Shown here one piece after another: positions 3,552-25,459 of a DNA stretch of 25,459 bases. The notes under the pieces were generated by a model that was given only the letters and a program-made list of their open reading frames with translations, was not told where the DNA came from and ran no database searches. Every line of letters begins with the position of its first letter. Position 1 is the stretch's first letter. This DNA comes from a virus. The translations under genes and the position numbers were made by a program. The DNA lies in the IMG/VR virus record IMGVR_UViG_3300026625_000038, positions 1-25,459 of that record; one strand, 5' to 3'.

Positions 3552-3566
3552 TTACAACAAGTGTTA

Positions 3567-3599
3567 CAGCACATATACATAATATAATATATGTGCTGT
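3567..3599. promoter_or_regulatory. Palindromic variant module between divergent genes (possible bidirectional promoter or operator)
   Basis: cagcacatata-cataatataa-tatatgtgctg: perfect 11-bp inverted arms around an AT core, between the glycosyltransferase (minus, ATG 3491) and the 269/284-aa gene (plus). Confidence 0.5.
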
Positions 3600-3635
3600 G
3601 CATGTTTATTTTTGCCAAGTAAGAAAATAATAATT

Positions 3636-7566: not shown

Positions 7567-10500
7567 TTAGCGAGCTGAACGTAATTGCCAATTTAATATT
7601 ATTAATTGTATTTCTTCATCAGTTAAACCATACTTTTTAAATTGCTGTAAATATTGTTGTGCAGTATTTAAATCAATTTTTTGTTTTTCAAATAATAAAT
7701 TAATCGTAGTAATAATATCATGGACATACCTGCTAATTCTTCTATTTCTTGCATATTCAAAATAAACATTTTGTAAATCGTTAGGAACTTGAAATTCCGA
7801 AAATACCTTTTGTAATAATTGTGTTGGGTTTGATAAATATTCGCTTATTGTTAAAGCTTTTGAAGGTGTAATGTAAAGTTCTTGGTAAGCCATTAATAAT
7901 TTTCTAATTTGTGCTGATAATTTATAAATACCTAATAAAACGTCATTAATACCATATTGTTTTAATAAACTTTCTAGTTGTGTATTTTGCACACCGTAAA
8001 TTAAAAGTTGAATATATTCAGTTTTAAGAGATTGTACATATTCTCCTACAAAAATTTGTTGGAATAAATTAACGTGTAAATTTAACAATTCTGATGGTAT
8101 AAATGAATATTCAACAAGTTGGTTAAGCGGATAATTATATTTAATTGCGTTTTCAATGTTAGAAAGTGAAGGTAAATATTTTCTCCAAATTTCTAAACCA
8201 AATGAAGAAGCATATTGGTCTAATAAAACTTTAATTTGGTTATCTGGAATTCCTAGTTGTCTTAATTCATTTTCGGCATTACCTAAGTTTACTGGTATTT
8301 TACCAACTTTAAACAATTGACCTTGTACAATATTACTAATAATTGTGTGTAAACTGTAAAATGTTGGTATGTAAGTTTGTACAAATAAATTAGCTAAATC
8401 TTTTTGCATACCTAAATTTTCAAGTCTGCTTATCGCATTTGTTGGAGTTATTTGTAAATCTTTTAATAATGTTTTTATGTATTCAATTTCTGTTGTTAAT
8501 TGAAAAACTTGAATTGCCGGTTTAATTTCATATTCTACAATATCTTTCGGTAATTTTGAAATATTTGCTGTTATACCATGTCTTGCTAATTGCGTGTAAT
8601 AACTTATAATTTTTGGATATATATATTCAAAGTAAAACTTTTGTGTATAAATGTCAATTGCAGTTTTATCTTTCAAAATTTTTCCTAGTTCTGTATTTAA
8701 TTGTTGTTGGTCAAAATAAAGTGTTTTTGCAATACTTTCAATTAACGAAAGTTGAAGTTTTGCAATGTTTATATTATATTCTTCTTGTATTATTTCATTT
8801 ACCAAATAATCATTTACTTTTAGTTTTCTTAATTCTGTTTCCACAAATTTGGGGTCAATCAAAAAGCTTCTTAATTGTTGTTTTAATGCGTTTAAAGTTG
8901 AAGATATGGCAATTTCTTGGTTTAGGTAATTTAAAAACACATCTTCAAACTCTTTTATAACACCTATTGCATTTAGCTCTTTTTTAATTTCATCAACTGA
9001 TAAATACCCTTTTCTAGCTAAACTTTCAATTTGCGAAATTTGATATTTTATAAGTGGTGCAGTTTGGTACTCAAAAATTGTCTCAGAAATTATTGAATTA
9101 TCGAAACCTAAGCTTTTTAATCCTTTTTCTGCGTCTCTACTACTTATAATATAATTTTGTAATTTAAACTGAAATTCTTTTAGTAAATGTTGTAATTGTA
9201 TGTATTTAAGTTCACCTTGTAAAATTGCCAATGCTACATTTTCATTAAAATTATTAGCTTTTAATTCTGATTTTATTTCTTTTTCATTAAATATTCCCAA
9301 TCTCACAATTTGTTGTAATTGTGTTAGTAACAATTGGTTAGTATAAACAATTTGCGATTCTTCAATCATGATATTAAAAACTTGTTCTACTTGTGTTGGA
9401 TAGCCTAAACTTTTGAATAAAGTTTGTATTGTTGTTTGTAAAAATTTTAAATCAATGTAAGGTCTTCCAAAATTGGTCAATGCCCTACTTAAAAGTGATC
9501 TTAAAAATTGTCTTATAAGTCTTTGTGTTGCATATTGGTATTCAAGGTCAAAAACTTTTAAAAATAGGTCTTTACCGGCTAAATTAATATTTTTAATAAT
9601 TTCTTCATATGCTTGAGAAGGTGTTACTACAAATTGTCTAATGCCTTCTTCAACAGCTTTTTGTAATAAACGTGCTGTCTCATTTTTATACATTAATTGT
9701 GCAGTTTTTGGAGTTATTAAATTATTATATGAATATTGTGAAACAGCGTCAAAATTCAAAAATCCATATTGTGCACCTAAAATGACATCACGAATTGAGA
9801 CGGGTTTAAATATAGGGTTTAAAGGTACAAAATCATTAGCCGGAGGTGTTAAATAAGCGTTTGTAAACCAAGCGGGGAAACCAGTTAATAAAATTGTTTC
9901 ACTTAAATGGTCTTGAATTTCTTCAAATGACCTAACTGCTACCCAATTGGCAATTAATCTAAATGGTGGATCTGCAAATGGTAAATCTCCCAAACCTATG
10001 TTATTAAATATTTCTCTTGCAGTTATTTTAAAATCTGCAATAAAAGGTTCTTTTAAAAATTCTTTAAGAGTAACTTGTATTTCTTGTCTAACTTCATTTA
10101 AAAAATCAACTCCAGATTCTGCAAAAGCTTTTATAATTTCTCCAAATTTTATTGGGATTCTACCACCTAAACCAATTGGTGCCAAAGAAATTTCAATTTC
10201 AGGTAAAATTTCAGCTAATTTTTCTGAAATTGCAGGTAAAAATTTACCAATTGTTATTGGAGCTATAAAAGGAGTTAAAAATTGTACAATTTGTGAAATT
10301 GCTGGCGCTATGCGAGACATATTTGAACCAAAGCCGGATAAAAAGTCTTGCACAATTGTAGAAATTATTTGAGCAAACACATTTGCAATGTTTTGAAAAA
10401 AACCATAAGCATCATTTATAAATTGTGAAGCTATTGATGATAAAACTTGAAAAGCGTTTACAATTTGTTGTTCAAGCCAACTTAAAAAACCTTGTATAAT

Positions 10501-10743
10501 TGGTATCGCAGTTTGTACAAAATTTTGTAGAATTGTAAGAAAATCAGTTGCAATATTTTGCATAAAAGTTGGTATATCGCCAATTGCTTGGCCTATAAAA
10601 CTAAGTGTATTTTGTATATCTGTCGTTATTGCATTCATAAAATTTATAAAAGTTGAACTTACCCAATTTGCAAAGTTTTCTAACGCTGATATTTCATCGG
10701 AGAAAAACGTACCAATAGCTCCTAAGTCAAATATTGTACTCAT
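7567..10743 (-). CDS. Terminal fibre / large minor structural protein (1058 aa from ATG 10743)
   Basis: The only >1000-aa ORF. Size matches the SIRV2 P1070 class. The track start at 10767 is TTG, and ATG 10743 (MSTIFDLG) is preferred. It has a helical N-terminus and repeated LxxLG modules in the C-terminal half. Confidence 0.9.
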   Translation of the reverse strand: MSTIFDLGAIGTFFSDEISALENFANWVSSTFINFMNAITTDIQNTLSFIGQAIGDIPTFMQNIATDFLTILQNFVQTAIPIIQGFLSWLEQQIVNAFQVLSSIASQFINDAYGFFQNIANVFAQIISTIVQDFLSGFGSNMSRIAPAISQIVQFLTPFIAPITIGKFLPAISEKLAEILPEIEISLAPIGLGGRIPIKFGEIIKAFAESGVDFLNEVRQEIQVTLKEFLKEPFIADFKITAREIFNNIGLGDLPFADPPFRLIANWVAVRSFEEIQDHLSETILLTGFPAWFTNAYLTPPANDFVPLNPIFKPVSIRDVILGAQYGFLNFDAVSQYSYNNLITPKTAQLMYKNETARLLQKAVEEGIRQFVVTPSQAYEEIIKNINLAGKDLFLKVFDLEYQYATQRLIRQFLRSLLSRALTNFGRPYIDLKFLQTTIQTLFKSLGYPTQVEQVFNIMIEESQIVYTNQLLLTQLQQIVRLGIFNEKEIKSELKANNFNENVALAILQGELKYIQLQHLLKEFQFKLQNYIISSRDAEKGLKSLGFDNSIISETIFEYQTAPLIKYQISQIESLARKGYLSVDEIKKELNAIGVIKEFEDVFLNYLNQEIAISSTLNALKQQLRSFLIDPKFVETELRKLKVNDYLVNEIIQEEYNINIAKLQLSLIESIAKTLYFDQQQLNTELGKILKDKTAIDIYTQKFYFEYIYPKIISYYTQLARHGITANISKLPKDIVEYEIKPAIQVFQLTTEIEYIKTLLKDLQITPTNAISRLENLGMQKDLANLFVQTYIPTFYSLHTIISNIVQGQLFKVGKIPVNLGNAENELRQLGIPDNQIKVLLDQYASSFGLEIWRKYLPSLSNIENAIKYNYPLNQLVEYSFIPSELLNLHVNLFQQIFVGEYVQSLKTEYIQLLIYGVQNTQLESLLKQYGINDVLLGIYKLSAQIRKLLMAYQELYITPSKALTISEYLSNPTQLLQKVFSEFQVPNDLQNVYFEYARNRRISRYVHDIITTINLLFEKQKIDLNTAQQYLQQFKKYGLTDEEIQLIILNWQLRSAR

Positions 10744-10821
10744 ATTATTTATATTACTGCAAAACAAAAATATAAATGATACTGGTAAAATTCAAAAAAT
10801 TTTTACCTTTTAATTTAAAGC

Positions 10822-11034
10822 TTACTCATTTGGTTTCTCACTTTCTCCCTTTACTTGCAATTTTCTCATTTCTTTAACAATTTTTACAACTTCTAACGCT
10901 TTTTGAAAAACTTCGCTTTTTCTAACATTTTCATCATTACACGTGGCTAACGCCATTGTTAAATCATCGAGAGCTAAATAAAGTTTAGCCGTTATTTCCG
11001 TACTTAAACTTAATTTTCTCTTTGTCTCTGACAT
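10822..11034 (-). CDS. Hypothetical 70-aa helical protein
   Basis: Intact ORF between hjc and the fibre gene. It overlaps the hjc 3' end by 50 nt in another frame. No motif recognised. Confidence 0.45.
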   Translation of the reverse strand: MSETKRKLSLSTEITAKLYLALDDLTMALATCNDENVRKSEVFQKALEVVKIVKEMRKLQVKGESEKPNE

Positions 11035-11350
11035 CTTGCTTTAAATTATAAAATATGACACTTTTATATTTTTTATAATGAACAACAACTAAAGTCTTGC
11101 ATTCACAAAAATTAAACATTTCGCAAAATTTAAACAGTTTTTCAATTTGTTGTTTATCTATTTCAACATAATTTTTTGAAGTAGATTTAACTTCAATTGC
11201 GAAAATTACGTTATTATGTGTTGCTATAATATCCGGCAATGCTTGTTTACCTGTGCCGGAAACTGGTATTCTTAAAACTTTATAACCACCTTTTTCTAAT
11301 ATTTCCAAAGTTTTATATTCATAATATTTGCCGGATTGCCGGAAATTCAT
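10985..11350 (-). CDS. hjc: Holliday junction resolvase (Hjc-type, 121 aa)
   Basis: Archaeal Hjc pattern: GxxYE..(YEYKTLEILEKGGY), RIPVSG.G....PDIIA, then IEVKS (catalytic D...E-x-K). The 121-aa size equals the SIRV resolvase. Confidence 0.9.
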   Translation of the reverse strand: MNFRQSGKYYEYKTLEILEKGGYKVLRIPVSGTGKQALPDIIATHNNVIFAIEVKSTSKNYVEIDKQQIEKLFKFCEMFNFCECKTLVVVHYKKYKSVIFYNLKQDVRDKEKIKFKYGNNG

Positions 11351-11353
11351 GGT

Positions 11354-11815
11354 TTACCCCTTATTTAACCATTTAATAAATATTGGGTGTTTTGTCCTAT
11401 TTGTTTCTCCAATTTGTTGAAAACCGGCTTTTTTATATAAAGCATTTGAATGGTCTAACATACCTAAAGTCCACAACACTTCAATCCCGTCATTTTTAAG
11501 TTTTTCACTTAAATCAATTAAAAATTTAACTAAGTAATCTCCAGGTGCCGTTTTTGTAATTCTTCTAATAAAATATGTTCTATCAAATGGAATATTATAA
11601 TTTTGTGCAATAAAACGAAAAGGCGTATTATCGTGAAGCCATGCAATTGCAACTATAAATTTTTGGTTTTCTTCATTTGCAATATATAAAAAATAACGGG
11701 AATATTTTCCAGCTCCACTGCCTTGAGGTATTGATTGCGAATGATAAAATTCAATTAACAACCTTGCAAATTTTATTAATTCTTTTTCTTTCGCTTCTTC
11801 AATTACAAACTCCAT
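11354..11815 (-). CDS. GNAT-like acetyltransferase-fold protein (153 aa from ATG 11815), putative
   Basis: The C-terminal ...NALYKKAGFQQIGE is a typical GNAT motif B. RRITKTAPGDYLVKFL resembles the acetyl-CoA-binding loop. The track start at 11827 is TTG. The gene lies 3 nt upstream of hjc, so likely an operon. Confidence 0.6.
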   Translation of the reverse strand: MEFVIEEAKEKELIKFARLLIEFYHSQSIPQGSGAGKYSRYFLYIANEENQKFIVAIAWLHDNTPFRFIAQNYNIPFDRTYFIRRITKTAPGDYLVKFLIDLSEKLKNDGIEVLWTLGMLDHSNALYKKAGFQQIGETNRTKHPIFIKWLNKG

Positions 11816-11841
11816 ATTTACCAACAATTATTACAGTGTAT

Positions 11842-11855
11842 GACATATATATACA
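11842..11855 (-). promoter_or_regulatory. TATA box + GTC promoter of the GNAT-like / hjc operon
   Basis: The minus strand reads tgtatatatatGTCatac, ~27 nt upstream of ATG 11815. Confidence 0.55.
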
Positions 11856-11901
11856 TTATGCGTATTGTGAATTTTTGTTTTTTAACTGCACATTTGTAAT
11901 T

Positions 11902-13302
11902 ATGGCTACTGTGTTAAGTAAAAGAAATATTGCATCGATGAAACAAAAATTATATCAAAAAGTTTTAAATAGAAATACATTTCCGGCATTTTCAGCGATG
12001 TTTGATGCCGGTGTTTTTTCAGTTTTACCTTCAGCATTGGAAAGTATTGAAATACCGGAAGGTATAAATACAAATTACGGTATTGCTTACGCTTCAATTA
12101 TTACAACTTTGCTTTCTTCATTAAATAATTTAGCAATTTCAACATTTAATTCTGATATAACAAGTTTTACAAATTTACAACTAGGTTTTACTCCTTTGTT
12201 TGGTACTGCAAGCGGTTTACAATTTGTACAACAAAGTACCGCTTTATATGATAATTATGTAAAACTATGTTCAACTTTGTATCAACCGGCGGTTTTTGAT
12301 GAAACTTATTTTGGTTTAAGCGTTTATCAACCAGCATTAGCAATTGAATACCAAAACGCTTCTTGTAAAAAAATTGAAAAATATTTTTCTCAATTACCAG
12401 TTTCAAATATTTCTGTTGATTTACCTAGTTTAGGTATTGGTAATACTAGTATTACAAGTTCCGATAGTTTTAGTTTACAAAATATACAGAATACCGGAGT
12501 TAATGATTTATTAAATACATTAAATATAAACTACAATCAACTACCCGATTTAGCTAAGTTTGTTATTTCGTTTATTCCAAATTTAAACGAAATAATTAAT
12601 AGTGGACTTGCGCTTGATGTTGGGTGGCTAGATAGGTGTGTTTTAGTCCCAAATATTGAAGAAATACCAAGTTATAAAGTACAATTACAAAACGGTATGA
12701 TTTTGCAAAATTTTGCGGATATTTTTGGGATGATTTTGGATTATACACCTCTAGATTTTGCGGTTTTAATTCCCGAATTTAATCCTAATAATGTTACACA
12801 ACTAGATTTAGTTGCTATTTTAACGGCAGATAAAACTGTAATTTCAATATTTGGCAGTTTGTTTAAATTGCATTTGTATGACCCTTCACCAGGTGGGACA
12901 AATATAGCTTATAATTCAGAAATTGAGAATTATGCTGTTACTTATCAACAATTTCTCAACATTCAACAAATTGTTAATAAAAAATATGCCAATGTCTGGT
13001 ACGCTAAAATGGTGGCAAGTGCAATAATTGAAATTGCTAGATATCCATATCAACAAAATTATAGTTATAATTCCGGAAAAAGGACATTATCTTATTCTGA
13101 CTTTTTGAATTATTGGCAAACAAAATGGTCTTTTTATGGGGTTTCGCAAGAAGATTTACAATTTGCGCAACAATTTGGAGAACAATTGCAAGGCCAAGCC
13201 CAAGTTGAAAATGTGTTAAAACAAGCACAAAAATCTACTAAAGTAAAACAATATAAACCGATATTTTATTATAAAAACTTCCAAAATATTGCAAGTAGGT
13301 AA
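11902..13302 (+). CDS. Conserved minor virion protein class (466 aa from ATG 11902)
   Basis: The track ORF begins at 11677 but overlaps the divergent gene and promoter. ATG 11902 (MATVLSKRN) lies after the divergent promoter region 11828-11901. Size falls in the ~460-490-aa conserved rudiviral structural protein class. Confidence 0.8.
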   Translation: MATVLSKRNIASMKQKLYQKVLNRNTFPAFSAMFDAGVFSVLPSALESIEIPEGINTNYGIAYASIITTLLSSLNNLAISTFNSDITSFTNLQLGFTPLFGTASGLQFVQQSTALYDNYVKLCSTLYQPAVFDETYFGLSVYQPALAIEYQNASCKKIEKYFSQLPVSNISVDLPSLGIGNTSITSSDSFSLQNIQNTGVNDLLNTLNINYNQLPDLAKFVISFIPNLNEIINSGLALDVGWLDRCVLVPNIEEIPSYKVQLQNGMILQNFADIFGMILDYTPLDFAVLIPEFNPNNVTQLDLVAILTADKTVISIFGSLFKLHLYDPSPGGTNIAYNSEIENYAVTYQQFLNIQQIVNKKYANVWYAKMVASAIIEIARYPYQQNYSYNSGKRTLSYSDFLNYWQTKWSFYGVSQEDLQFAQQFGEQLQGQAQVENVLKQAQKSTKVKQYKPIFYYKNFQNIASR

Positions 13303-13317
13303 CACAAAATTTCCACA

Positions 13318-13343
13318 CTATATTCCTAATATTTTATATATAG
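13318..13343 (+). promoter_or_regulatory. Structural-type promoter module, copy 1 of a tandem triple
   Basis: ctatattcctaatattttatatatag: a TATA-rich core flanked by the dyad CTATAT...ATATAG. Confidence 0.55.
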
Positions 13344-13377
13344 CGTGGTGGAACTGTGAAACTACACAAAAACAGTG

Positions 13378-13402
13378 CTATATTCCTAATATAATATATA
13401 TA
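13378..13402 (+). promoter_or_regulatory. Structural-type promoter module, copy 2 of a tandem triple
   Basis: ctatattcctaatataatatatata, exactly 60 bp after copy 1. Confidence 0.55.
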
Positions 13403-13462
13403 ACTCAGCATTTTTGTGGAATTGCAATATTTTTATAACAAAAAACCGTATAAAAAGCGAGT

Positions 13463-13487
13463 CATATTCCTAATATAATATATATAG
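13463..13487 (+). promoter_or_regulatory. Structural-type promoter module, copy 3 of a tandem triple (proximal to the ORF at 13536)
   Basis: catattcctaatataatatatatag, 84 bp after copy 2 and ~49 nt upstream of GTG 13536. Confidence 0.6.
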
Positions 13488-13535
13488 CGCAGTGGCACTG
13501 AGTATTTTTTATCTCCTTTTTGCAAAATATTAATT

Positions 13536-13880
13536 GTGAAAGAAATAGACCCTTTTGCAAACTTGTTTGGAATTGTTAGGTTAGCAATTGACAAAATCAG
13601 AGAATTGGAATTACAAGGCCAAATTTACGGTTTATCTCGCTATCTTCCAAATTCAATTATTCTTGTAAAAACTATAAATTTTCCATTAATAGTAGATTTA
13701 TATATCCCGGGTTTTACTTTTTATTTTCAATTTCTCATAGTAAAAGACCCAAAAACTAACCAAATTCGAATAAGTGATTTTAGGGTAGTTTACCCGCAAC
13801 CTATTGCAATACAAACAAATACAATGAATAATTTGCCGGGCATGGACATAAACCCCACAACCGGTGAAGAAGATGGATGA
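13536..13880 (+). CDS. Hypothetical protein (114 aa, GTG start)
   Basis: Intact ORF ~49 nt downstream of the third tandem promoter module. It overlaps the next ORF. Confidence 0.6.
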   Translation: MKEIDPFANLFGIVRLAIDKIRELELQGQIYGLSRYLPNSIILVKTINFPLIVDLYIPGFTFYFQFLIVKDPKTNQIRISDFRVVYPQPIAIQTNTMNNLPGMDINPTTGEEDG

Positions 13881-14103
13881 AATAACTTTAATATTTGCAA
13901 TTATCTCAACAACAATAACTACTTTACTTGCAATTATTCAACTTTATATAAAAATTAAAAATGCGTTAAAAGACGCTGTAAAAGAAATTGTAGATTCAGA
14001 ACTACAAAATTTGAAAATACAAATTGAAGAACTAAAAATAAGCCAAAATGAACTAAAAACACAAATTGAAGAAATAAAAAGGAAAATATATGAAAAGAAA
14101 TAA
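13864..14103 (+). CDS. Small membrane protein, N-terminal TM helix plus coiled coil; candidate pyramid-forming egress protein (PVAP-like)
   Basis: ITLIFAIISTTITTLLAIIQLYI is a TM segment, followed by a heptad-like helical region (ELQNLKIQIEELKISQNELKTQIEEIKRKI). This is the same architecture as SIRV2 P98 / STIV C92. The start may be ATG 13873. Confidence 0.55.
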   Translation: MKKMDEITLIFAIISTTITTLLAIIQLYIKIKNALKDAVKEIVDSELQNLKIQIEELKISQNELKTQIEEIKRKIYEKK

Positions 14104-14106
14104 ATA

Positions 14107-15114
14107 TTATTCCATAAACCTTATATATAACCTTTCAATATCATAATTTTTAGCTAATTCTTTTAAGTTTTTACTTCTTTCTTCTCTGTCTTTTAATTCA
14201 GTTGCAATAAAAATTGCATTTATCATATTTTCTGTATTAAATTTATAAATTTGCCATTTTTGACCGTGGTCTTTATCATAATACTCCTCAACTTTATCAT
14301 TTTTAATTAGCAAATTCCATTGCCAACTTGTAAACTCATCAAATGGAGATATTAATTGATGGATAACTGGTGTACCCATCGCCATACTTTCTAATACTGG
14401 CAGACCAAAGCCCTCTGCACCGGAGGGTACAATTATATAATCCATAATTGAATAAAAAGCAAAAATATATTCTCTCGGATTATAACCGAATTCGCTAACA
14501 AAATGTACATTTTGTGGGACTTCATATCCTTTAAATTGTTTATGAGAAATTACAAAAAAGTGTACTTTTTTTGCTAATTCTGTATATTTTGTATTTAATT
14601 CTCTAAATACTTCTAACATTAAATCCATATTTTTTCTCTTTGTTAAACCTGAGACAATACCAAACTTTATTGCATTAGGAAAATCTTTATTTATTTTTTC
14701 TTTTAATTGCGGTATAAATTCTTCAGCTTTTTTAACAACATCAAAATTTATACCGTGAAAAACCGGCAAATCCACTCTCAGACCTACTTCTTCCAAATTT
14801 TTAGCTGTAAATTTAGAATTAGGTATAAAAGTTATATCTTGTAATAAATATTTATTTACAATTTCTAAATTTGGTATTCCGTCAGCAGTTGTATAAAAAT
14901 ATTTTGTATTTTTAAATTGGTTATAAGCGTAAAGATAAGGGTTAAGTGTAGGAGGGTGAAAAGGTACAAAAACAATTAATTTATCACTTTGTGGAATTAA
15001 ATACGGAATTGTAGAAATTGTAACAATTTCTCCATTTTTTCTTAATACACAAGCTATATCTTCTGCCACATTTCTAATTGATGAATAATTCATAGTTAAA
15101 ATTGTAGTTTTCAT
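14107..15114 (-). CDS. Glycosyltransferase, GT-B fold / group 1 (335 aa)
   Basis: GAEGFGLPVLESMAMGTPVI is the canonical GT1 E-x7-E region. The 335-aa size equals the SIRV ORF335 class. A TATA+GTC promoter lies at 15135-15154. Confidence 0.9.
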   Translation of the reverse strand: MKTTILTMNYSSIRNVAEDIACVLRKNGEIVTISTIPYLIPQSDKLIVFVPFHPPTLNPYLYAYNQFKNTKYFYTTADGIPNLEIVNKYLLQDITFIPNSKFTAKNLEEVGLRVDLPVFHGINFDVVKKAEEFIPQLKEKINKDFPNAIKFGIVSGLTKRKNMDLMLEVFRELNTKYTELAKKVHFFVISHKQFKGYEVPQNVHFVSEFGYNPREYIFAFYSIMDYIIVPSGAEGFGLPVLESMAMGTPVIHQLISPFDEFTSWQWNLLIKNDKVEEYYDKDHGQKWQIYKFNTENMINAIFIATELKDREERSKNLKELAKNYDIERLYIRFME

Positions 15115-15586: not shown

Positions 15587-15634
15587 GTTTCTCCAGTTAT
15601 AATCTTATTTTTCTAAAATAAAAATTGACACGGT

Positions 15635-15660
15635 GTATATATAATATTATGTATATGTAT
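15635..15660 (-). promoter_or_regulatory. Major capsid protein promoter (variant of the module)
   Basis: The minus strand reads acatatacataatattatatatacaccgtGTCaat, ~50 nt upstream of the capsid ATG at 15586. GTC follows the TATA box. Confidence 0.65.
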
Positions 15661-15761
15661 TGTTTTTATTGTAATTAGCCATTTTAAAAACTATCAATAA
15701 CTAAATTTTACTTACTTATCAATAACAACTATTTTCAATGTAACACAACAAGTACACAACA

Positions 15762-15787
15762 CTATATTCCTAATATATTATATATAG
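15762..15787 (+). promoter_or_regulatory. Structural-type promoter module (distal copy upstream of the 108-aa ORF)
   Basis: ctatattcctaatatattatatatag. Confidence 0.5.
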
Positions 15788-15857
15788 CCCGCAAAATTTG
15801 TGATTTTGGCCTTTTATTTAAAAATTATTTTCGCTATGAAATAACAAACACGCAGTG

Positions 15858-16314: not shown

Positions 16315-16326
16315 AAAATAAAAAGC

Positions 16327-16338
16327 TATAAATATGTC
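16327..16338 (+). promoter_or_regulatory. TATA box + GTC promoter of the 52-aa RHH gene
   Basis: tataaatatGTCata, identical to the element at 1805-1819. Confidence 0.6.
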
Positions 16339-16366
16339 ATACTTTTTATAAATATATGGTGAAACA

Positions 16367-16525
16367 ATGCAAGAAAGAAAAGAAAAAATAAAGGTAATAT
16401 TTGGTATACAACTTGACAAAGACTTAAAAACAAGACTAAAACTTTACTGTGCTAAGAAGGACATGACTTTAACGAGTGCCATTGAAGAAGCTATTGAAGA
16501 GTACTTAACAAGAAGAAACGCATAA
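16367..16525 (+). CDS. Ribbon-helix-helix (CopG/SvtR-like) transcription regulator, 52 aa (not in ORF track)
   Basis: Hand translation: MQERKEKIKVIFGIQLDKDLKTRLKLYCAKKDMTLTSAIEEAIEEYLTRRNA. It shows a beta strand (VIFGIQLD), helix 1 (LKTRLKLYCAKK) and helix 2 (TLTSAIEEAIEEYL). Its own TATA+GTC promoter lies at 16327-16338. Confidence 0.7.
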   Translation: MQERKEKIKVIFGIQLDKDLKTRLKLYCAKKDMTLTSAIEEAIEEYLTRRNA

Positions 16526-16527
16526 AT

Positions 16528-20172: not shown

Positions 20173-20202
20173 GGTTTTTAAGCTTCATGGTTATCACTGG
20201 CT

Positions 20203-20228
20203 GTATATATAATATTAGGAATATAGCA
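20203..20228 (-). promoter_or_regulatory. Structural-type promoter module facing the 88-aa/RHH operon
   Basis: gtatatataatattaggaatatagcac is the reverse complement of the module, ~80 nt upstream of ATG 20127. Confidence 0.5.
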
Positions 20229-20277
20229 CTGTGCATTATTGCTTGTTCTTTCTAATTTTTTAATTTGCATTCTATAA

Positions 20278-20946
20278 TTATAACTTTTCTAATAATTCTC
20301 TTAATTTTTTATGATGCCTTAATATTGCCGGTTTATGACACATTTTTTGTTTTTTCTTTTCTCCCATTATATCTTGGAAACCGCCGGCAATATAGCAACT
20401 AAAAACTATTTGATATCCACCTGGAGATACTTGTAATGGCTGTTTTAAAATACCTAGTTTATCATACGGTGGACTAGAATTAGGTATAAAATAATTCGGA
20501 TAAACAAAATCAGAAACTTGTATATTATCAATTACATAATAATAATCTTCAACTGGATCGCCAACTTCTTGCATATAAAATTTGGAAAATAAAAAAGAAG
20601 GCGATACGGCTAATAATGTATTTACGTATGGGTCTGCTAACATTTCCAAAACTTCATGTGAAAGACCTACAGTCCACGAAAAACCAATATTATTAAAACT
20701 GTTTATAAAAACTTTAGCATAAGGTATATTATTATTATCAACATCATGATAACCACCTGCACCTGGCACATCGCTATTATCTTCAATTATAACTTGCCAA
20801 CCTGTACAATTAGGATCCGCCGAAATTATAGCTTCAATATCCCAAATAGGGTAAAAATCTTGTTGTATTTGTTTATTTATAGCGTTTACAATTGGCTGTA
20901 AATTAATTTGGTATGAACTATTATTTTTCAAACAAAGTTGTATCAT
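20278..20946 (-). CDS. Hypothetical protein (222 aa) with an HExxE..DP motif, possible metal-dependent hydrolase
   Basis: Intact ORF with GAGGYHDVD...VGLSHEVLEMLADP...EVGDPVED and a basic C-terminal tail. It is not among the rudiviral core genes I recognise. Confidence 0.65.
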   Translation of the reverse strand: MIQLCLKNNSSYQINLQPIVNAINKQIQQDFYPIWDIEAIISADPNCTGWQVIIEDNSDVPGAGGYHDVDNNNIPYAKVFINSFNNIGFSWTVGLSHEVLEMLADPYVNTLLAVSPSFLFSKFYMQEVGDPVEDYYYVIDNIQVSDFVYPNYFIPNSSPPYDKLGILKQPLQVSPGGYQIVFSCYIAGGFQDIMGEKKKQKMCHKPAILRHHKKLRELLEKL

Positions 20947-21033
20947 ACATTATATATTTAATAAACTCGTTAAAAAGCATTGCGTAAAAATGATACACCT
21001 ATATTATAACCCTATAAAAATAAATACACCAAA

Positions 21034-21255
21034 ATGAATATAAAATTGATAAACATGTCAAATTCAAATTCAAATAACACATTTAATACAATTGTGTTTA
21101 TAGTACATGCAACAATTTTTGCTTTAGCTTTATTATTTGTATTTATAAACCCACAATTATTAAATAACCAAAATTATGTAGATATATTATTTACACTATT
21201 ATCAACATTGTTAATACACGGTGGATATCATATAGGAAGAAGCTCCACTAAATAA
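21034..21255 (+). CDS. Small membrane protein (73 aa, two predicted TM helices)
   Basis: Hydrophobic segments IVFIVHATIFALALLFVFI and ILFTLLSTLLIHGGY. It is the only plus-strand gene in the right arm. Confidence 0.5.
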   Translation: MNIKLINMSNSNSNNTFNTIVFIVHATIFALALLFVFINPQLLNNQNYVDILFTLLSTLLIHGGYHIGRSSTK

Positions 21256-21328
21256 TCTTCTCTTGGTCTCACACTTGGCTTTCAAAGAGAATTGAAGGAC
21301 CTGAGTTGGGTGAACCCATAATTAAATA

Positions 21329-22219
21329 TTATGAAATTTCATGAAGCCCAAACCCCATATCCTTTAATGCTGTATACCTCAAATCTTCATAATCTATTCT
21401 ATTTAAAACTTCTTCTTTATTCATTATAATATAATTATCTTTTTGCAACAACAGGAATTTTGTTCCCTCAAACAGGAATTTTGTTCCCTCATCAACTTCT
21501 GCTAAATTAGCATATGCATCACTATTTGTGGTAAACAGCATTGACTTTAATTTATTATCTTTTATATATTCTGTAAACCATTTAAGAAGCATTTGTAACC
21601 TTTTAGGGTGCAAGCTTAGTGTCTCGATATCATCTATTAGAAGTATATCTGGTTTATGATGATATACCAACCAAAGTAACTTTACCGTGTTACTAATACC
21701 TCTTCCTAAATTATCCAAATATGTTACATTATCACCGTTTTCATATAAAAAATCATCAACTACACGTATCACAGCACCATCAATAAGTCCTTTTATCATG
21801 TCATTGAACTTCATATCTTCATCATCAGGCTTAACAAATATACCGTAATGTGGTTGGTGAACCATTGTCCGAAAGGCGTAAGGATATATTATCATCACCT
21901 TATACTTAGTACTACCTTTACAATCATAATGATACATTTCAGAAAAAGGTGAAATAACAGAATTAAATGGAAGACGTGTTCTTTCTGCTTTAACATGTTC
22001 ACATTTTACTTCTTCATCGTTAATATTAACTGAAAAGTTTTCATAATTAATGCTACCTTTTGTATTTAAAATTGTAGAAATATTATCCTTATTCGTTAAT
22101 GCTATTCTCTCCAAAAACGCGGTTTTTCCGACTCCGTTATTACCAACTATAGCAACTGTAGATATATTTTCAAGCAATATGGAACGATTGTAATAAACTA
22201 CTAATAGTTTATTTAACAT
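21329..22219 (-). CDS. Minimal ABC-type / AAA_21-like ATPase (296 aa)
   Basis: Walker A VAIVGNNGVGKTAF, signature-like LGRGISNTVKLL, Walker B plus D-loop ILLIDDIETLSLHP, and an H-loop-like MLFTTNS. It contains an in-frame 21-bp tandem duplication. Confidence 0.85.
   Translation of the reverse strand: MLNKLLVVYYNRSILLENISTVAIVGNNGVGKTAFLERIALTNKDNISTILNTKGSINYENFSVNINDEEVKCEHVKAERTRLPFNSVISPFSEMYHYDCKGSTKYKVMIIYPYAFRTMVHQPHYGIFVKPDDEDMKFNDMIKGLIDGAVIRVVDDFLYENGDNVTYLDNLGRGISNTVKLLWLVYHHKPDILLIDDIETLSLHPKRLQMLLKWFTEYIKDNKLKSMLFTTNSDAYANLAEVDEGTKFLFEGTKFLLLQKDNYIIMNKEEVLNRIDYEDLRYTALKDMGFGLHEIS
21450..21491. repeat. Perfect 21-bp tandem duplication inside the ATPase gene
   Basis: aacaggaattttgttccctca occurs twice back to back, encoding EGTKFLF-EGTKFLL in frame. 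Confidence 0.95.
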
Positions 22220-22248
22220 AATCTTCTTCCCCTTAAATACAATAATCT

Positions 22249-22397
22249 TATGACAAATATAAATCGTTTAAAAAACTATTAACTTAAATTCTTCTCTTCT
22301 CATTTTTTTAGAATAAAAAACAACAAACATCTCACAAATATCCAATCTCTTTCCTTTCTTTGATTATAATCATAACAATACAATAAATTATAGATAA
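22249..22397. repeat. ~150-bp direct repeat, copy A (upstream region of the ATPase gene)
   Basis: Aligns by eye over ~150 bp with 23151-23298: tatgacaaatataaat...aaactattaacttaaattcttc...ttagaataaaaaa...tttgattataatca...caataaattatagata. Confidence 0.8.
22252..22266 (-). promoter_or_regulatory. TATA box + GTC promoter of the ATPase gene
   Basis: The minus strand reads cgatttatatttGTCataag. Confidence 0.55.
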
Positions 22398-22499
22398 CTA
22401 AACAAAAGAAACGAATAAGAAATTAATCTCTTGTTTAATCACAATAATGAAATAAATTATTGTTAAACGAAAACAAAAATATAAAAAAAGGAAATACCT

Positions 22500-22691
22500 T
22501 TAACTATTTTGACGTAATTTTAAATCCAATAACACAAGAAGTGGTATATAAACAAAAATATAACCCAATAACATTATAATACCCAAATAAAAAACGTCCC
22601 AATTCTTTGGTATTACATTAAAATACTCAAATATATAAAAAATAGTCAAAGGCAAAAATAAAAGAAAAAGGATTAAAATTATAGCTTTCAT
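22500..22691 (-). CDS. Small membrane protein (63 aa, two predicted TM helices)
   Basis: AIILILFLLFLPLTIFYIF and LGIIMLLGYIFVYIPLLVLL. Its ATG overlaps the stop of the upstream 145-aa gene (ATGA), implying translational coupling. Confidence 0.55.
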   Translation of the reverse strand: MKAIILILFLLFLPLTIFYIFEYFNVIPKNWDVFYLGIIMLLGYIFVYIPLLVLLDLKLRQNS

Positions 22692-23125
22692 TCTCCCACT
22701 GGTGGAATTAAATAATAACTTAAAGGCAAACTTCCAAGATTTACATATAAAATTTCTTTTATATTTTGTGGTAATCCATCAAGCATTGTAACCGGTTGTT
22801 TACCGCTGTATAGCACATATTCTTGGATTTGTTGTATAGCACCGTTTTTCTCTATACTTACAACACTTACTTTTATTTGAACATTAGCTAAATTACTGCG
22901 ATAAACTGAATACATTAAATATTTAGCGGGATATAAAAGGTAAGACCTTGTACCGTGCCTACCACTAGCAGTTAAATGTAACCGTGAACTTATAATTTTT
23001 TTAGTATTAAAACTTAATAATATGGTATCTGCGTACCCACCATGACTTGTATTTTTATAGTTAAAAAATACAAGTACTTTTTCTTTCTCATTACCGTTAC
23101 TTTTTTCTTCTATTTCCTTTTCCAT
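22688..23125 (-). CDS. Hypothetical protein (145 aa)
   Basis: Intact ORF with a TATA+GTC promoter (23154-23168) in a duplicated upstream region. No motif recognised. Confidence 0.68.
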   Translation of the reverse strand: MEKEIEEKSNGNEKEKVLVFFNYKNTSHGGYADTILLSFNTKKIISSRLHLTASGRHGTRSYLLYPAKYLMYSVYRSNLANVQIKVSVVSIEKNGAIQQIQEYVLYSGKQPVTMLDGLPQNIKEILYVNLGSLPLSYYLIPPVGE

Positions 23126-23150
23126 TCTCTTTCACGTGATATAATAGCTT

Positions 23151-23298
23151 TATGACAAATATAAATCCTTTTAAAAACTATTAACTTAAATTCTTCTTCC
23201 TCTATTTATTTAGAATAAAAAATAACAGACAACTCATAAATACCCAATTTTCTTCCTTTCTTTGATTATAATCAAATTAATGCAATAAATTATAGATA
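23151..23298. repeat. ~150-bp direct repeat, copy B (upstream region of the 145-aa gene)
   Basis: See copy A. The offset is ~902 bp. Confidence 0.8.
23154..23168 (-). promoter_or_regulatory. TATA box + GTC promoter of the 145-aa gene
   Basis: The minus strand reads ggatttatatttGTCataaag, a duplicate of the ATPase promoter. Confidence 0.55.
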
Positions 23299-23410
23299 GA
23301 AAAATAAAAGAAATGAGAATAAAGAGCAATAAAGATAACTAAAGAAATAAAATAAAGGAAAAACAGAAGATAAAAAAATAAAAAAAATAAAAAAAGATTA
23401 AATTAAAAAA

Positions 23411-24181
23411 TTAGTCTACCTTGCGTGTAGGAACCGGATGTGCCATTATGTAGTAGTTATTACTGTATAGGTCTGTCAATTTCTCTTCATGATCGGGTGA
23501 TTTGATAGTCAACATTACATACTCAGGCACATAAACTAAATACGCCAAACCCGGACTAGAATACAGATGATATAATTTTATATTGCCATTGCTTTCAATA
23601 ACGTGGTTATATATCTGAATATTCCTTGTTACTTCGAATTCATCAGGTCTGATATATTTCGGCGATGGAACATTATAGATAAATAAATGTCCTTGTTCTA
23701 CAATTTGTTCAAATTCATACAATTTACCTTTAACAAACTTATCATAAATTTCTATTGTGTAATTACTGTAACTAATTAGTAATTTTGAATTTGCTAACCC
23801 ATGATTTGTTAAAATGTTTGAAATAATATTTTTCATATCTTCTATATCTCTACTAATTTTGTTTCTTGAATAAACTGAAATCATAGACGCAATTGGCGTG
23901 TAATATATACCCCTACTTTCTTCAAGTTGATTATTTTGATATTTATAACAACCTTCAAAAGTCAACCCTGATCTTGATACATATTTTGCACAGTCTATAA
24001 AATAATCTGAAATTAATGAAATTTTTATTACTTGTCCCCATTTTGTTTTTAACATAAAAACAGTCGGCAGATAACTTATTTGTCTTAAAATTCTAACTTC
24101 ATACTTTTGCTCTCTTCCTTCTTGTTTTTGTTCTTGTTGTGTTTCTTGTGTTTCTTCTGTTTGTTTTTTCTCTCCTTCCAT
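23411..24181 (-). CDS. Right terminal gene, hypothetical protein (256 aa) with an acidic/Q-rich N-terminus
   Basis: Intact ORF. Its first 7 codons (MEGEKKQ) and promoter are ITR-encoded and identical to those of the left 84-aa gene. The remainder is unrelated. Confidence 0.75.
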   Translation of the reverse strand: MEGEKKQTEETQETQQEQKQEGREQKYEVRILRQISYLPTVFMLKTKWGQVIKISLISDYFIDCAKYVSRSGLTFEGCYKYQNNQLEESRGIYYTPIASMISVYSRNKISRDIEDMKNIISNILTNHGLANSKLLISYSNYTIEIYDKFVKGKLYEFEQIVEQGHLFIYNVPSPKYIRPDEFEVTRNIQIYNHVIESNGNIKLYHLYSSPGLAYLVYVPEYVMLTIKSPDHEEKLTDLYSNNYYIMAHPVPTRKVD

Positions 24182-25459
24182 TTCCCTTTACCTCACTCTA
24201 TATATCTCACTCCTCACTTTTAAATTTTTCTGTAAACTTATACACACAAATTTTTACCTTTACTACCTTTCTCCGTTTTTTAACCTTTTTAATCTTTTTC
24301 CAAAAGTAATACTTTGGAGAAATATACCTCTGCACGCCACAATTATAATTATAACTACTAACTAGTAACTAACTAATTATATAATATATAGCTTGCAAGC
24401 TGTAAATTAACAAATTACAAATTGCAAAACTTATTATTAAAATATTAAAACACTGCAAACTTGCAAACTATAAATAATTATAACTTATAACTATGCAATA
24501 TTGCAAATTAAAATTTAATATATAATAACAATAAAATAATAATAATAAAAAAAACGATAACCTACACTACTTATAACAAATGCGTTTTTTTAGTATATAA
24601 ACCTAACTACACCACTTAATTGTATTACCCATGCAAAAATGTAAAACAGTATAACTAAAGCGTGAAAAAATTTTGCATGTAAAAGGTGAAAAATTTTTGC
24701 AAGTGCAAAGTATTAAACGCTTGCAAGTTTGCAAACCATAAAACTAAAAAGTTTTTACATCATGCGTTTAAATAAAAAGTTTACAAGTTTGCGAGTTGTA
24801 AAGTTAAAAGTTATGTAATTACGTAAGATGTTTAGTAACTTTATAATTCTCGCAAGAAAAATGTCTGGTTCCGCCTAATTAACAACTAACAATATAACTA
24901 GCTTATAGTTACGAATTTGCTAATATGTTTAGTAACTATTAGTTTTAAATATATGTCTGGTTCCGCCATATTATATAATATATAATTAACAAGTTGCTAA
25001 TTACAAACTTAGCCAAAATTGTAAAATATATTACTAGCAAATTATTAATTAAAGCTTTCAAATATATGATTTTTACGATTTTTAAATAAATAAAGTTAAA
25101 CATTTGCAAATATATTATTTCCAGTTTTTACGGTTAAATCTAATAATAATCTAATATGGATACTTTATTACAATTTATGAAATTGTATAGCTCCGAATTT
25201 TTTATTTAAATTTGCAAATAAATCAAGATAAAATATAAATAGCAATTTATATATTAATAATTTTTATAGCACCCCAAAAAAATTTAATAAAAAACCCAAT
25301 TTAAAATGATTTGCAAACTTTTAATTTTATGCAAATTTAAGATATTTTGGAAAATTTTGAAATAATTGATTTTTAAAATATTATTAAAAATATAAAAACA
25401 AATGGTTTTTACGATATTTTTTGAATTTACCCCCCAAAATCACATAAAAACAAATTACC
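24160..25459. repeat. Right inverted terminal repeat (ITR), ~1300 bp
   Basis: Reverse complement of 1-1300. Divergence begins at 24159, corresponding to left nt 1301. Confidence 0.97.

Follow-up and report, generated by a model that had tools for sequence, protein, structure and literature searches.

The right arm of an uncultivated rudivirus genome is probably a mosaic of independent transcription units, among them an AcrIIIB1/AcrIA4 homologue and a minimal ABC-type ATPase

We analyzed a viral genome of 25,459 nucleotides (IMG/VR record IMGVR_UViG_3300026625_000038, positions 1 to 25,459; referred to in full as the window), and in particular the six open reading frames (ORFs) found near its right end, at positions 20,278 to 24,181. 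An earlier note on this DNA described them as six genes of unknown role, none of which it could match to rudiviral core functions, and as a candidate system for anti-defence or inter-virus exclusion. We find instead that the segment is probably (with a rough probability of 0.7) the right variable arm of a rudivirus, assembled as a mosaic from four or more independent transcription units and not one system. The evidence comprises sequence homologies, a promoter duplication, a cassette indel and independent distributions of the genes among related elements. The first unit is a homologue of acrIIIB1/acrIA4 with its promoter inside the inverted terminal repeat (ITR); by homology, its product would most likely block the host subtype III-B CRISPR system and possibly subtype I-A. 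The second appears to be a bicistronic operon for a protein of the predicted anti-defence gene (ADG) family ADG.11 and a small protein with two predicted transmembrane segments. A 1.2-kb cassette would constitute the third, joining a duplicate of the second unit's promoter to a minimal ATPase of the ATP-binding cassette (ABC) type, and a divergent gene pair, encoding a 73-residue membrane protein and a 222-residue zincin-like putative metallohydrolase, the fourth.

Results

Layout of the genome and its right arm

The window is a complete linear rudivirus genome of 25,459 bp with ITRs of 1,300 bp, whose two arms (1-1300 and 24160-25459) are 100% identical. Its core genes are collinear with those of the Usarudiviruses SIRV8 and SIRV9 and with those of SIRV2, at approximately 76% nucleotide identity. 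This core includes the major capsid protein, a 1,066-residue tail-fibre protein, a Holliday junction resolvase, homologues of gp17, gp18 and gp19, and a number of glycosyltransferases and methyltransferases. The virus is an uncultivated rudivirus related to the Usarudiviruses; no close cultured virus was found for this genome, and a 17.6-kb IMG/VR contig (L009) is 97% identical to it across 10 kb. All six of the ORFs reported earlier are present, at the positions and with the lengths originally given. The arm is arranged as follows (coordinates, strand, feature).

20278-20946, minus strand: 222-residue ORF, predicted zincin/metzincin-like metallohydrolase
20947-21033, no strand: divergent intergenic region of 87 bp, with the promoters of the 73-residue and 222-residue genes; outside the duplicated regulatory class
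21034-21255, plus strand: 73-residue ORF, small membrane protein, phrog_9152
21256-22463, no strand: 1.2-kb cassette, comprising promoter copy A, the ATPase gene and a 3' spacer; present or absent between close relatives
21329-22219, minus strand: 296-residue ORF, stand-alone minimal ABC-type ATPase of the AAA_15/AAA_21 clade
22220-22499, minus strand: regulatory region copy A, 5' of the ATPase gene; duplicate of copy B, contains AAACGATTTATATTTGTCATAA
22500-22691, minus strand: 63-residue ORF, two transmembrane segments, translationally coupled to the 145-residue gene
22688-23125, minus strand: 145-residue ORF, ADG.11 family by sequence, soluble
23126-23410, minus strand: regulatory region copy B, 5' of the 145/63 operon; purine-rich stretch resembling a B recognition element (BRE), TATA box, AAAGGATTTATATTTGTCATAA
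23411-24181, minus strand: 256-residue ORF, homologue of SIRV2 gp48 (ORF249), AcrIIIB1/AcrIA4
24160-25459, no strand: right ITR, whose inner 22 nucleotides are the first 22 of the 256-residue gene

Each of these ORFs is conserved in related metagenomic contigs (L009, L003 and L027 taken together). Pairwise ratios of nonsynonymous to synonymous substitution rates (dN/dS) lay between 0.08 and 0.37 wherever substitutions sufficed (0.12-0.32 for the ATPase gene, 0.14-0.15 for the 145-residue gene, 0.15-0.18 for the 73-residue gene and 0.08-0.23 for the 222-residue gene), the sole exception being the 63-residue gene compared with L009 (1.23, on 3 substitutions). The six ORFs are therefore genuine protein-coding genes, under purifying selection where substitutions sufficed. 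Searches of PDB sequences with the four larger island proteins gave no useful match, and an NCBIfam search of the island proteins added nothing.

Duplicated regulatory regions and a cassette indel

The regions of about 280 nucleotides located 5' of the ATPase gene (copy A) and of the 145/63 operon (copy B) are duplicates of one another. Their promoter-proximal 180 nucleotides or so are approximately 85% identical and contain the purine-rich BRE-like stretch, TTTATATT and TGTCATAA. An 18-mer occurs exactly twice in the window, which holds 6 matches at up to three mismatches against 0.36 expected. A 15-mer core, TTTATATTTGTCATA, is also located 5' of the SIRV9 acrIIIB1 homologue gp52, and the variant TTTTAAATTTGTCATA is found 5' of SIRV9 gp03 (ADG.17, a viral antitoxin family) and gp53 (ADG.18). 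Published ADG predictions relied on a strong promoter together with surrounding regulatory sequence that is common to other genes of the same genome (PMC11065993), and both of these features are found at the ATPase gene and at the 145/63 operon.

Comparison with contig L027, whose flanks are 87-94% identical to the window, revealed that the sequence between 21256 and 22463, about 1.2 kb containing promoter copy A and the ATPase gene, is cleanly absent there: the alignment covers window positions 23135-22464 and then jumps straight to 21255-20988. L027 keeps the 145-, 63-, 73- and 222-residue genes and lacks both the ATPase gene and the 256-residue gene, and its AcrIIIB1 slot is occupied by a different gene of 98 residues. 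Given the missing ATPase cassette and the exchanged gene in the AcrIIIB1 slot, the arm is rebuilt cassette by cassette.

The island genes occupy both strands, and their transcription units, four or more in number, differ in phyletic distribution; the complete set of six was found in the window and in L009, with no co-occurrence outside near-identical genomes. These observations bear directly on the proposal that the six genes, or the ATPase and the membrane proteins among them, form one module for superinfection exclusion or abortive infection with the ATPase as its presumed sensor and the membrane proteins as its presumed effectors. That proposal could draw on the clade of the ATPase, which is the one used by Septu, PARIS, AbiL, OLD and Gabija, on the two small membrane proteins that flank it, and on the fact that the six genes are kept together in the window and L009. 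It could also draw on matches of the 73-residue protein to SLATT_5 (E = 0.031) and of the 63-residue protein to SieB (E = 0.27), but at 14.1 and 11.3 bits these fall far below the gathering scores of 29.5 and 26 and were discarded, as were sub-threshold Pfam matches to NACHT and BRCT. Moreover, L027 retains both membrane genes and the 222-residue gene without the ATPase, ATPase homologues elsewhere never occur with these neighbours, and the 63-residue gene is coupled to the ADG.11 gene rather than to the ATPase gene. We consider a single module very improbable, the absence of co-occurrence having largely refuted it. The idea of the island as one system thus fails on its transcription units, on its separate distributions and on the L027 arm, and the comparison of gene neighbourhoods, proposed earlier as a check, shows that the six genes are not conserved as a block beyond near-identical genomes.

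An anti-CRISPR homologue at the edge of the ITR

The 256-residue protein is 35% identical to SIRV2 gp48 across 249 residues (BLASTP, E = 7e-44) and matches phrog_6092 at 1e-73. Using tblastn, homologues were found in 41 virus records, 39 of which cover at least 80% of the query; the carriers are SIRV1, SIRV2, SIRV4 to SIRV11, SIFV, SIFV2, four betalipothrixvirus species and ARV2, and the SIRV2 homologue is gp48/ORF249 by its locus annotation. SIRV2 gp48 is AcrIIIB1, a validated anti-CRISPR (PMC11065993), and has been reported also to inhibit subtype I-A, which gave rise to the name AcrIIIB1/AcrIA4 (bioRxiv 10.1101/2024.04.02.587611). Judged by its sequence, the 256-residue protein is a member of this characterized anti-CRISPR family, in which inhibition has been demonstrated only for SIRV2 gp48.

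The likeness extends over the full length of the protein, at 35% identity to gp48 and 50% to the Usarudivirus copies, and includes the position in the right terminal arm, the single copy per genome and a strong BRE/TATA promoter. The differences concern the gene's edges: the protein carries a lineage-specific N-terminal extension of 26 residues, rich in E, Q and K, that it owes to the ITR boundary; the promoter of the gene sits within the ITR and also serves a left-arm gene; and no AcrIA3 (gp47) gene adjoins it. The sequence located 5' of the gene, ACAGAAAAATTTAAAAGTGAGGAG, resembles the promoters of SIRV9 gp01 and gp56, GAGAGAAAAATTTATAAAGGAGGA, in a comparison made by eye, without a matrix scan.

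That the island adjoins the ITR, as suggested earlier, is confirmed to the nucleotide, since the 256-residue gene begins 22 nucleotides inside it. The ITR in fact ends 22 nucleotides inside two different genes (1279-1300 and 24160-24181), so that the 256-residue ORF and a left-arm ORF for an 84-residue winged helix-turn-helix (wHTH) protein (1279-1533) have an identical promoter and identical first seven codons (MEGEKKQ). The sequences just 3' of the two stop codons are also related (1531-1679 and 23265-23413, 73%). These ITR-edge genes look like the result of a gene-cassette swap between conserved flanks.

Nowhere in the arm is divergence from L009 greater than in the 256-residue gene, which has 87.7% nucleotide identity compared with 96-100% elsewhere and an overall dN/dS of 0.37. 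Codons 71-185 (23627-23971) form a divergent patch with dS of 0.64 and dN of 0.21, compared with dS of 0.05-0.11 in the flanks. The high dS of this central patch indicates an allele segment imported by recombination rather than the effect of selection; positive selection on the anti-CRISPR homologue was considered and rejected on the same values. In the L009 copy the ATG start is replaced, with Leu-Glu-Val standing for Met-Glu-Gly.

The ADG.11 operon

The 145-residue protein is 39.7% identical to SBRV1 gp53 across 131 residues (tblastn, 2e-26) and also matches SFV1 gp04 and SBFV1; its family alignment contains the conserved motif SSRLH.S..GRHGTR.YLL.PAKYL. SBRV1_gp53 (AZI75942.1) is entered as ADG.11, under 'ADG/Acr', in Supplementary Data 1 of Bhoobalan-Chitty et al. 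2024, who predicted ADG.11 to be an anti-defence family (PMC11065993). By this homology the 145-residue protein belongs to ADG.11. The description of all six genes as unmatchable therefore does not apply to this protein or to the 256-residue AcrIIIB1/AcrIA4 homologue, and the anti-defence role suggested for the island is supported by homology for these two genes of the six.

The 145-residue protein is approximately 40% identical to the SBRV1 product, and its gene, like that of SBRV1, is found in a terminal arm with a shared, virus-specific regulatory sequence in front of it. It differs in being translationally coupled to the 63-residue gene: the two ORFs overlap by 4 nucleotides (ATGA) and the 63-residue protein has two strong hydrophobic segments, both as previously reported. 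In SBRV1 the gene that follows gp53 is instead a wHTH homologue of ADG.09/AcrIA3, in other contigs the ADG.11 gene is solitary, and no coupled membrane ORF follows the ADG.11 homologues at the L025, SBRV1 and SFV1 loci examined. The 63-residue gene is intact in L027 (92% identical, dN/dS 0.13), and its product had no family match above threshold in the libraries searched.

A minimal ABC-type ATPase that moves as a single gene

The earlier assignment of the 296-residue protein as an ABC/AAA_21-like ATPase is borne out by Pfam, PADLOC and Foldseek alike. The protein scores above the Pfam gathering thresholds of AAA_15 (38.9 bits, cut-off 32.1) and AAA_21 (29.8 bits, cut-off 27), and matches the PADLOC models AriA, PDC-M38A, AbiLi and PtuA at weak E-values. 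Its AlphaFold2 model has a mean predicted local distance difference test (pLDDT) score of 86, and the top Foldseek matches in the PDB were PtuA proteins of retron-associated Septu systems, followed by the heads of Rad50 and SMC and by transporter nucleotide-binding domains (E of about 1e-6 to 1e-5, TM-scores 0.31-0.48). A PDB profile search with the family returned generic ABC-F and Rab P-loop matches only.

The motifs were examined across 80 homologues. The window protein contains a Walker A motif (GNNGVGKT), a signature-like loop (LGRGIS), a Walker B motif (ILLIDDIE..LHP), an H-loop (TTNS) and a clade-specific C-terminal YEDLRYTA. Walker A is invariant as GxNGVGKT and the signature-like loop reads LGxGIS. 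Position 197, which follows the Walker B sequence ILLID, is Asp in 67 homologues, Asn in 11, and Glu and Ser in one each, with an invariant Glu at +3 and LHP shortly after it; H-loop position 232 is Asn in 78 of the 80 and His in two, giving TTNS in place of the canonical TTHS, which more distant AAA_15 relatives retain. The canonical catalytic residues, a Glu directly after the Walker B Asp and the H-loop His, are thus altered in this family. In the window protein, residues 244-250 (21470-21490) belong to an in-frame tandem duplication of seven residues (EGTKFLF-EGTKFLL) that lies in a loop and is found in 4 of the 80 family members; the confidence of the AlphaFold2 model dips at this loop.

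In Septu, PARIS, AbiL, OLD and Gabija the ATPase is fused to, or in an operon with, an effector (HNH PtuB, Toprim AriB, OLD and GajA, AbiLii). The viral protein shares with PtuA, AriA, AbiLi and OLD/GajA the ABC fold, the Walker A motif, the signature-like loop, Walker B with its ..E..LHP context and the TT.S context of the H-loop. It differs in being just 264-296 residues long across the viral type, in having neither a coiled-coil or dimerization insert nor a Toprim, HNH or other effector domain, in having no conserved partner gene, and in the His-to-Asn change of the H-loop, and its TM-scores to known structures are low (0.31-0.48). It is a bare ABC head, a single domain. Because no effector was found, neither as a nuclease or other domain in the protein nor as a Pfam or PADLOC match in the downstream ORFs, the ATPase cannot make up a complete system of the OLD, Gabija, PARIS or Septu type, and on this architecture the resemblance to such modules drawn in the earlier note breaks down.

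The family numbers 93 matches in a large protein database. Among cultured viruses no homologue was found save the distant ARV1 gp35 (ORF210), which is 30% identical across 123 residues, carries a C-terminal FEDLR motif and likewise lies in a rudiviral arm, but is shorter (210 residues) and very divergent. According to a review from 2014, ARV1 ORF210 is the sole non-Lon-type, ABC-like ATPase of rudiviruses and lipothrixviruses, and beyond the table in that review we found nothing in the literature on AAA_15 proteins of archaeal viruses. The homologues occur in four backgrounds, with different neighbours each time: the present rudivirus lineage; L004, a 31-kb metagenomic element with a tyrosine integrase, an MCM-like protein and the Holliday junction resolvase Hjc; L005 and L023, virus-like contigs of 39-46 kb in which the genes beside the ATPase have no Pfam annotation; and L021, where the ATPase homologue lies in an SSV1_D-63/IS605 context. 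In L004, L005/L023 and L021 the ATPase homologues are without the island membrane genes or the 222-residue gene. In L004, positions 8001-14850 encode three different AAA_15/AAA_21 ATPases, of 291, 383 and 299 residues.

No short viral-type ATPase was found among the matches listed for GTDB representative genomes, and none was found in PLSDB plasmids. In an exhaustive profile search the family formed one cluster at 50% identity, and the next relatives were proteins of 440-500 residues. Those of the longer relatives for which a source was traceable are chromosomally encoded in Sulfolobales (Acidianus sulfidivorans WP_110379144.1, A. brierleyi WP_168367108.1, Metallosphaera and Sulfodiicoccus), and their C-terminal domain can be aligned with the viral ATPase over its whole length (hhalign probability 99.9%, E = 1e-30, 28% identity). 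The viral protein has the same clade-specific C-terminal YEDLRY motif and the same DD.E..LHP Walker B context; it lacks the N-terminal domain of approximately 200 residues and the partner gene, and its H-loop reads TTNS where the host proteins have TTQS. At the two Sulfolobaceae loci examined (L028 8001-9963 and L031 8001-10065), the host ATPases comprise 464-478 residues, with the N-terminal domain joined to AAA_15, and match PADLOC AbiLi at 3e-17 and AriA at 8e-18. Each is followed by an overlapping partner ORF of 193-219 residues; the two partners are 40% identical and have the stretches FGDG..DR and IDKEHC in common. This host gene pair is a candidate for an undescribed archaeal defence module.

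What the viral ATPase does may be considered in relation to these host proteins. In the reading that we favour, the ATPase would be made early and would act in anti-defence by interfering with the homologous host module. This specific mechanism is possible, and we advance it tentatively. ABC heads function as head-to-head dimers, so that non-productive dimers between the viral protein and the ATPase domain of the host are conceivable; the viral protein might also titrate a partner protein. A more specific version, in which the protein is a 'headless' copy of a host defence ATPase with altered catalytic residues and an anti-defence-type promoter, and poisons the host two-gene module through dead heterodimers or by sequestering its partner, is doubtful at present.

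On the main rival reading, the virus carries the ATPase gene as a means of defence or exclusion against competing viruses or plasmids, not against host immunity, in the manner of P2 Old or satellite-borne PARIS, and the protein would act alone or with a variable partner or a host effector. The nearest solved structures, those of PtuA from retron-associated Septu, together with the PADLOC matches to AriA, AbiLi and PtuA, are consistent with such a role, yet the protein has no nuclease or other effector domain. Mobility between unrelated elements would also fit, as would the L004 context, where an integrase and two more AAA_15 ATPases lie beside it. An adjacent or overlapping ORF of 217-241 residues follows the ATPase gene in L004 and L005, and a partner ORF also comes after the gene in the chromosomal relatives, an arrangement seen in two-gene defence modules. 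However, the L004 and L005 ORFs are unrelated to each other or to any window protein, and L023 and the window have no such ORF; comparison of these ORFs with the host partners (193 and 219 residues) gave no similarity across groups and no Pfam or PADLOC match. The 222-residue protein was considered as a conserved operon partner of the ATPase and rejected, as it has no similarity to the L004 and L005 ORFs or to the host partners. The substitutions in the ATPase, with Asn for the H-loop His and Asp or Asn after Walker B in 78 of 80 sequences each, and a promoter region held in common with a predicted anti-defence operon, also argue against an exclusion gene, and we regard this alternative as somewhat unlikely.

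The divergent pair and functions in the viral cycle

The 73-residue protein had been described as having two transmembrane segments. One strong hydrophobic segment (residues 15-44) is present, and the second is weaker, leaving the protein only marginally of that type. It matches phrog_9152 at 6e-16, and tblastn identified homologues in SMRV1 (gp30), SIFV (SIFV0074) and SIFV2 (gp68/69); the names SIFV0074 and SIFV2_gp6x are absent from the published ADG list (PMC11065993). In SMRV1 gp30-gp27 (L108 2483-4866), the homologue overlaps the start of an S-adenosylmethionine-dependent methyltransferase gene.

The reported HExxE sequence of the 222-residue protein is present, within the motif H97-E98-V-L-E101-x-x-x-D105, and is conserved in the family: across 92 sequences neither E98 nor E101 varies and H97 is retained in at least 90%; H67, D105, E127 and D130 are also invariant. 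The family comprises 112 metagenomic homologues, on large bacterial chromosomal contigs of up to 918 kb as well as on virus-like contigs, and never beside the ATPase. No homologue was found in cultured viruses, and a Pfam scan of all 92 members of the sequence set yielded no meaningful family.

Its AlphaFold2 model is confident (pLDDT 90.4). The structural searches proposed in the earlier note, which led from the ATPase to PtuA, Rad50 and SMC, gave only weak metzincin matches in the PDB for this protein: snapalysin (E = 0.03, more precisely 0.034; probability 0.91; TM-scores 0.26/0.40), matrix metalloproteinases, karilysin and ADAM. In BFVD the model matched a caudoviral protein (A0A6J5KQ96, E = 5e-10, TM-scores 0.68-0.76) and, weakly, poxviral and SprT-like metalloproteases (E 0.01-0.4). 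The N-terminal half resembles zincins in its sheet and active-site helix, with a His-Glu pair on the helix and further acidic or His residues as ligand candidates. The differences are the motif, HExxExxxD in place of the canonical HExxH and the metzincin HExxHxxGxxH, the modest Foldseek values (E 0.03-0.5, TM-scores 0.25-0.40) and the fact that the only strong structural match is to an uncharacterized phage protein. On the model, the best reading is a predicted metal-dependent hydrolase with a non-canonical HExxE site.

It is conceivable that the genes other than the anti-CRISPR homologue serve the virus's own cycle. Egress or entry would then be the task of the membrane proteins, the zincin-like protein would act in maturation or in remodelling of the host envelope, and the ATPase would take part in DNA transactions as Rad50, RecF or SMC do. 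No homologue of the egress protein PVAP/P98 (SIRV2 gp49, SIRV9 gp17) was detected in the genome by tblastn at E of 0.01 or below, and a search of 311 six-frame ORFs with a PVAP hidden Markov model gave a best E of 0.84, so that release would have to fall to a different membrane protein; the syntenic slot of PVAP lies at approximately 16315-16527. The suggestion that a small membrane protein of the island is a divergent PVAP was rejected by both searches, neither of these proteins resembling PVAP. The SMRV1 context of the 73-residue homologue, the Rad50 and SMC heads among the structural neighbours of the ATPase and the purifying selection on these genes would all accord with a role in the viral cycle. 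These genes are, however, located in a terminal variable arm, none of them is conserved across rudiviruses, and the ATPase is dispensable in the close relative L027; such roles seem to us decidedly unlikely.

The left arm and a second repeated element

The left arm (1279-2384) contains three genes. The 84-residue wHTH protein at the ITR edge has a homologue in ARV1 gp38 (ADG.02) and a weaker one in SBRV1 gp52 (ADG.09/AcrIA3 family); a 74-residue protein is an Aca8 homologue; and a 119-residue protein is STIV_B116-like (DUF1874) and belongs to the AcrIII-1 family (Pfam, 113 bits). Rudivirus terminal arms are known to hold variable anti-defence genes (PMC11065993), as the earlier note had also pointed out, and with these Aca8, AcrIII-1-family and ADG.02 genes on the left, both arms fit the published rudiviral anti-defence layout.

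A near-palindromic element, GCTATATTCCTAATAT-N-ATATATA with the variant TATACATAATATTATATATAC, is repeated at 1752-1796, 3566-3613, 13318-13415, 15616-15663, 15755-15791 and 20181-20233. It is located 5' of the Aca8 ORF and of many core genes, that for the capsid protein among them, and probably represents a separate regulatory class.

Discussion

Several points weigh against reading the segment as a variable arm of separately acquired anti-defence and accessory units. At 35% identity to AcrIIIB1, the target specificity of the 256-residue protein may differ from that of gp48, and the anti-defence role of ADG.11 is itself a prediction. The core TTTATATTTGTCATA also occurs, at 2-3 mismatches, before core genes such as those for the 140-residue gp17 homologue and a 356-residue glycosyltransferase, so that promoter sharing is suggestive of anti-defence and not specific to it. 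The accession of ARV1 gp35 is absent from the published ADG list (PMC11065993). A tightly spaced ORF follows the viral-type ATPase gene in L004 (241 residues) and in L005 (217 residues), which leaves room for an ATPase that works with an effector, and the host two-gene module is uncharacterized, its partner ORFs having no Pfam or PADLOC match. In SMRV1 the 73-residue homologue heads a string of genes for a methyltransferase, a conserved rudiviral protein and a glycosyltransferase, a hint that it may function at the membrane and not in defence, and the 222-residue family occurs in bacterial chromosomes without a defence context; for both of these genes the contexts point away from anti-defence. 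The activities and targets that we propose for the island proteins are, in every case, predicted.

With these reservations, the region appears to be what knowledge of rudiviruses would lead one to expect, namely fast-exchanging anti-defence genes in the arms that share promoters, and once the homologues of AcrIIIB1/AcrIA4 and ADG.11 are recognized, little of the island's apparent mystery is left. The cassette indel, flanked by duplicated promoter regions, illustrates how such arms are rebuilt through recombination at shared regulatory sequences. The confidently modelled and previously unannotated zincin-like HExxE family spans bacteria, tailed phages and archaeal viruses. The compact ATPase, which moves as a single gene among Sulfolobales mobile elements, offers a testable entry to a possible new pair of defence and counter-defence systems. 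Should it prove to be a headless copy of a host ATPase, it would be, to our knowledge, the first dominant-negative anti-defence protein of the ATPase type described in archaeal viruses, and the host gene pair would be flagged as a new archaeal defence system.

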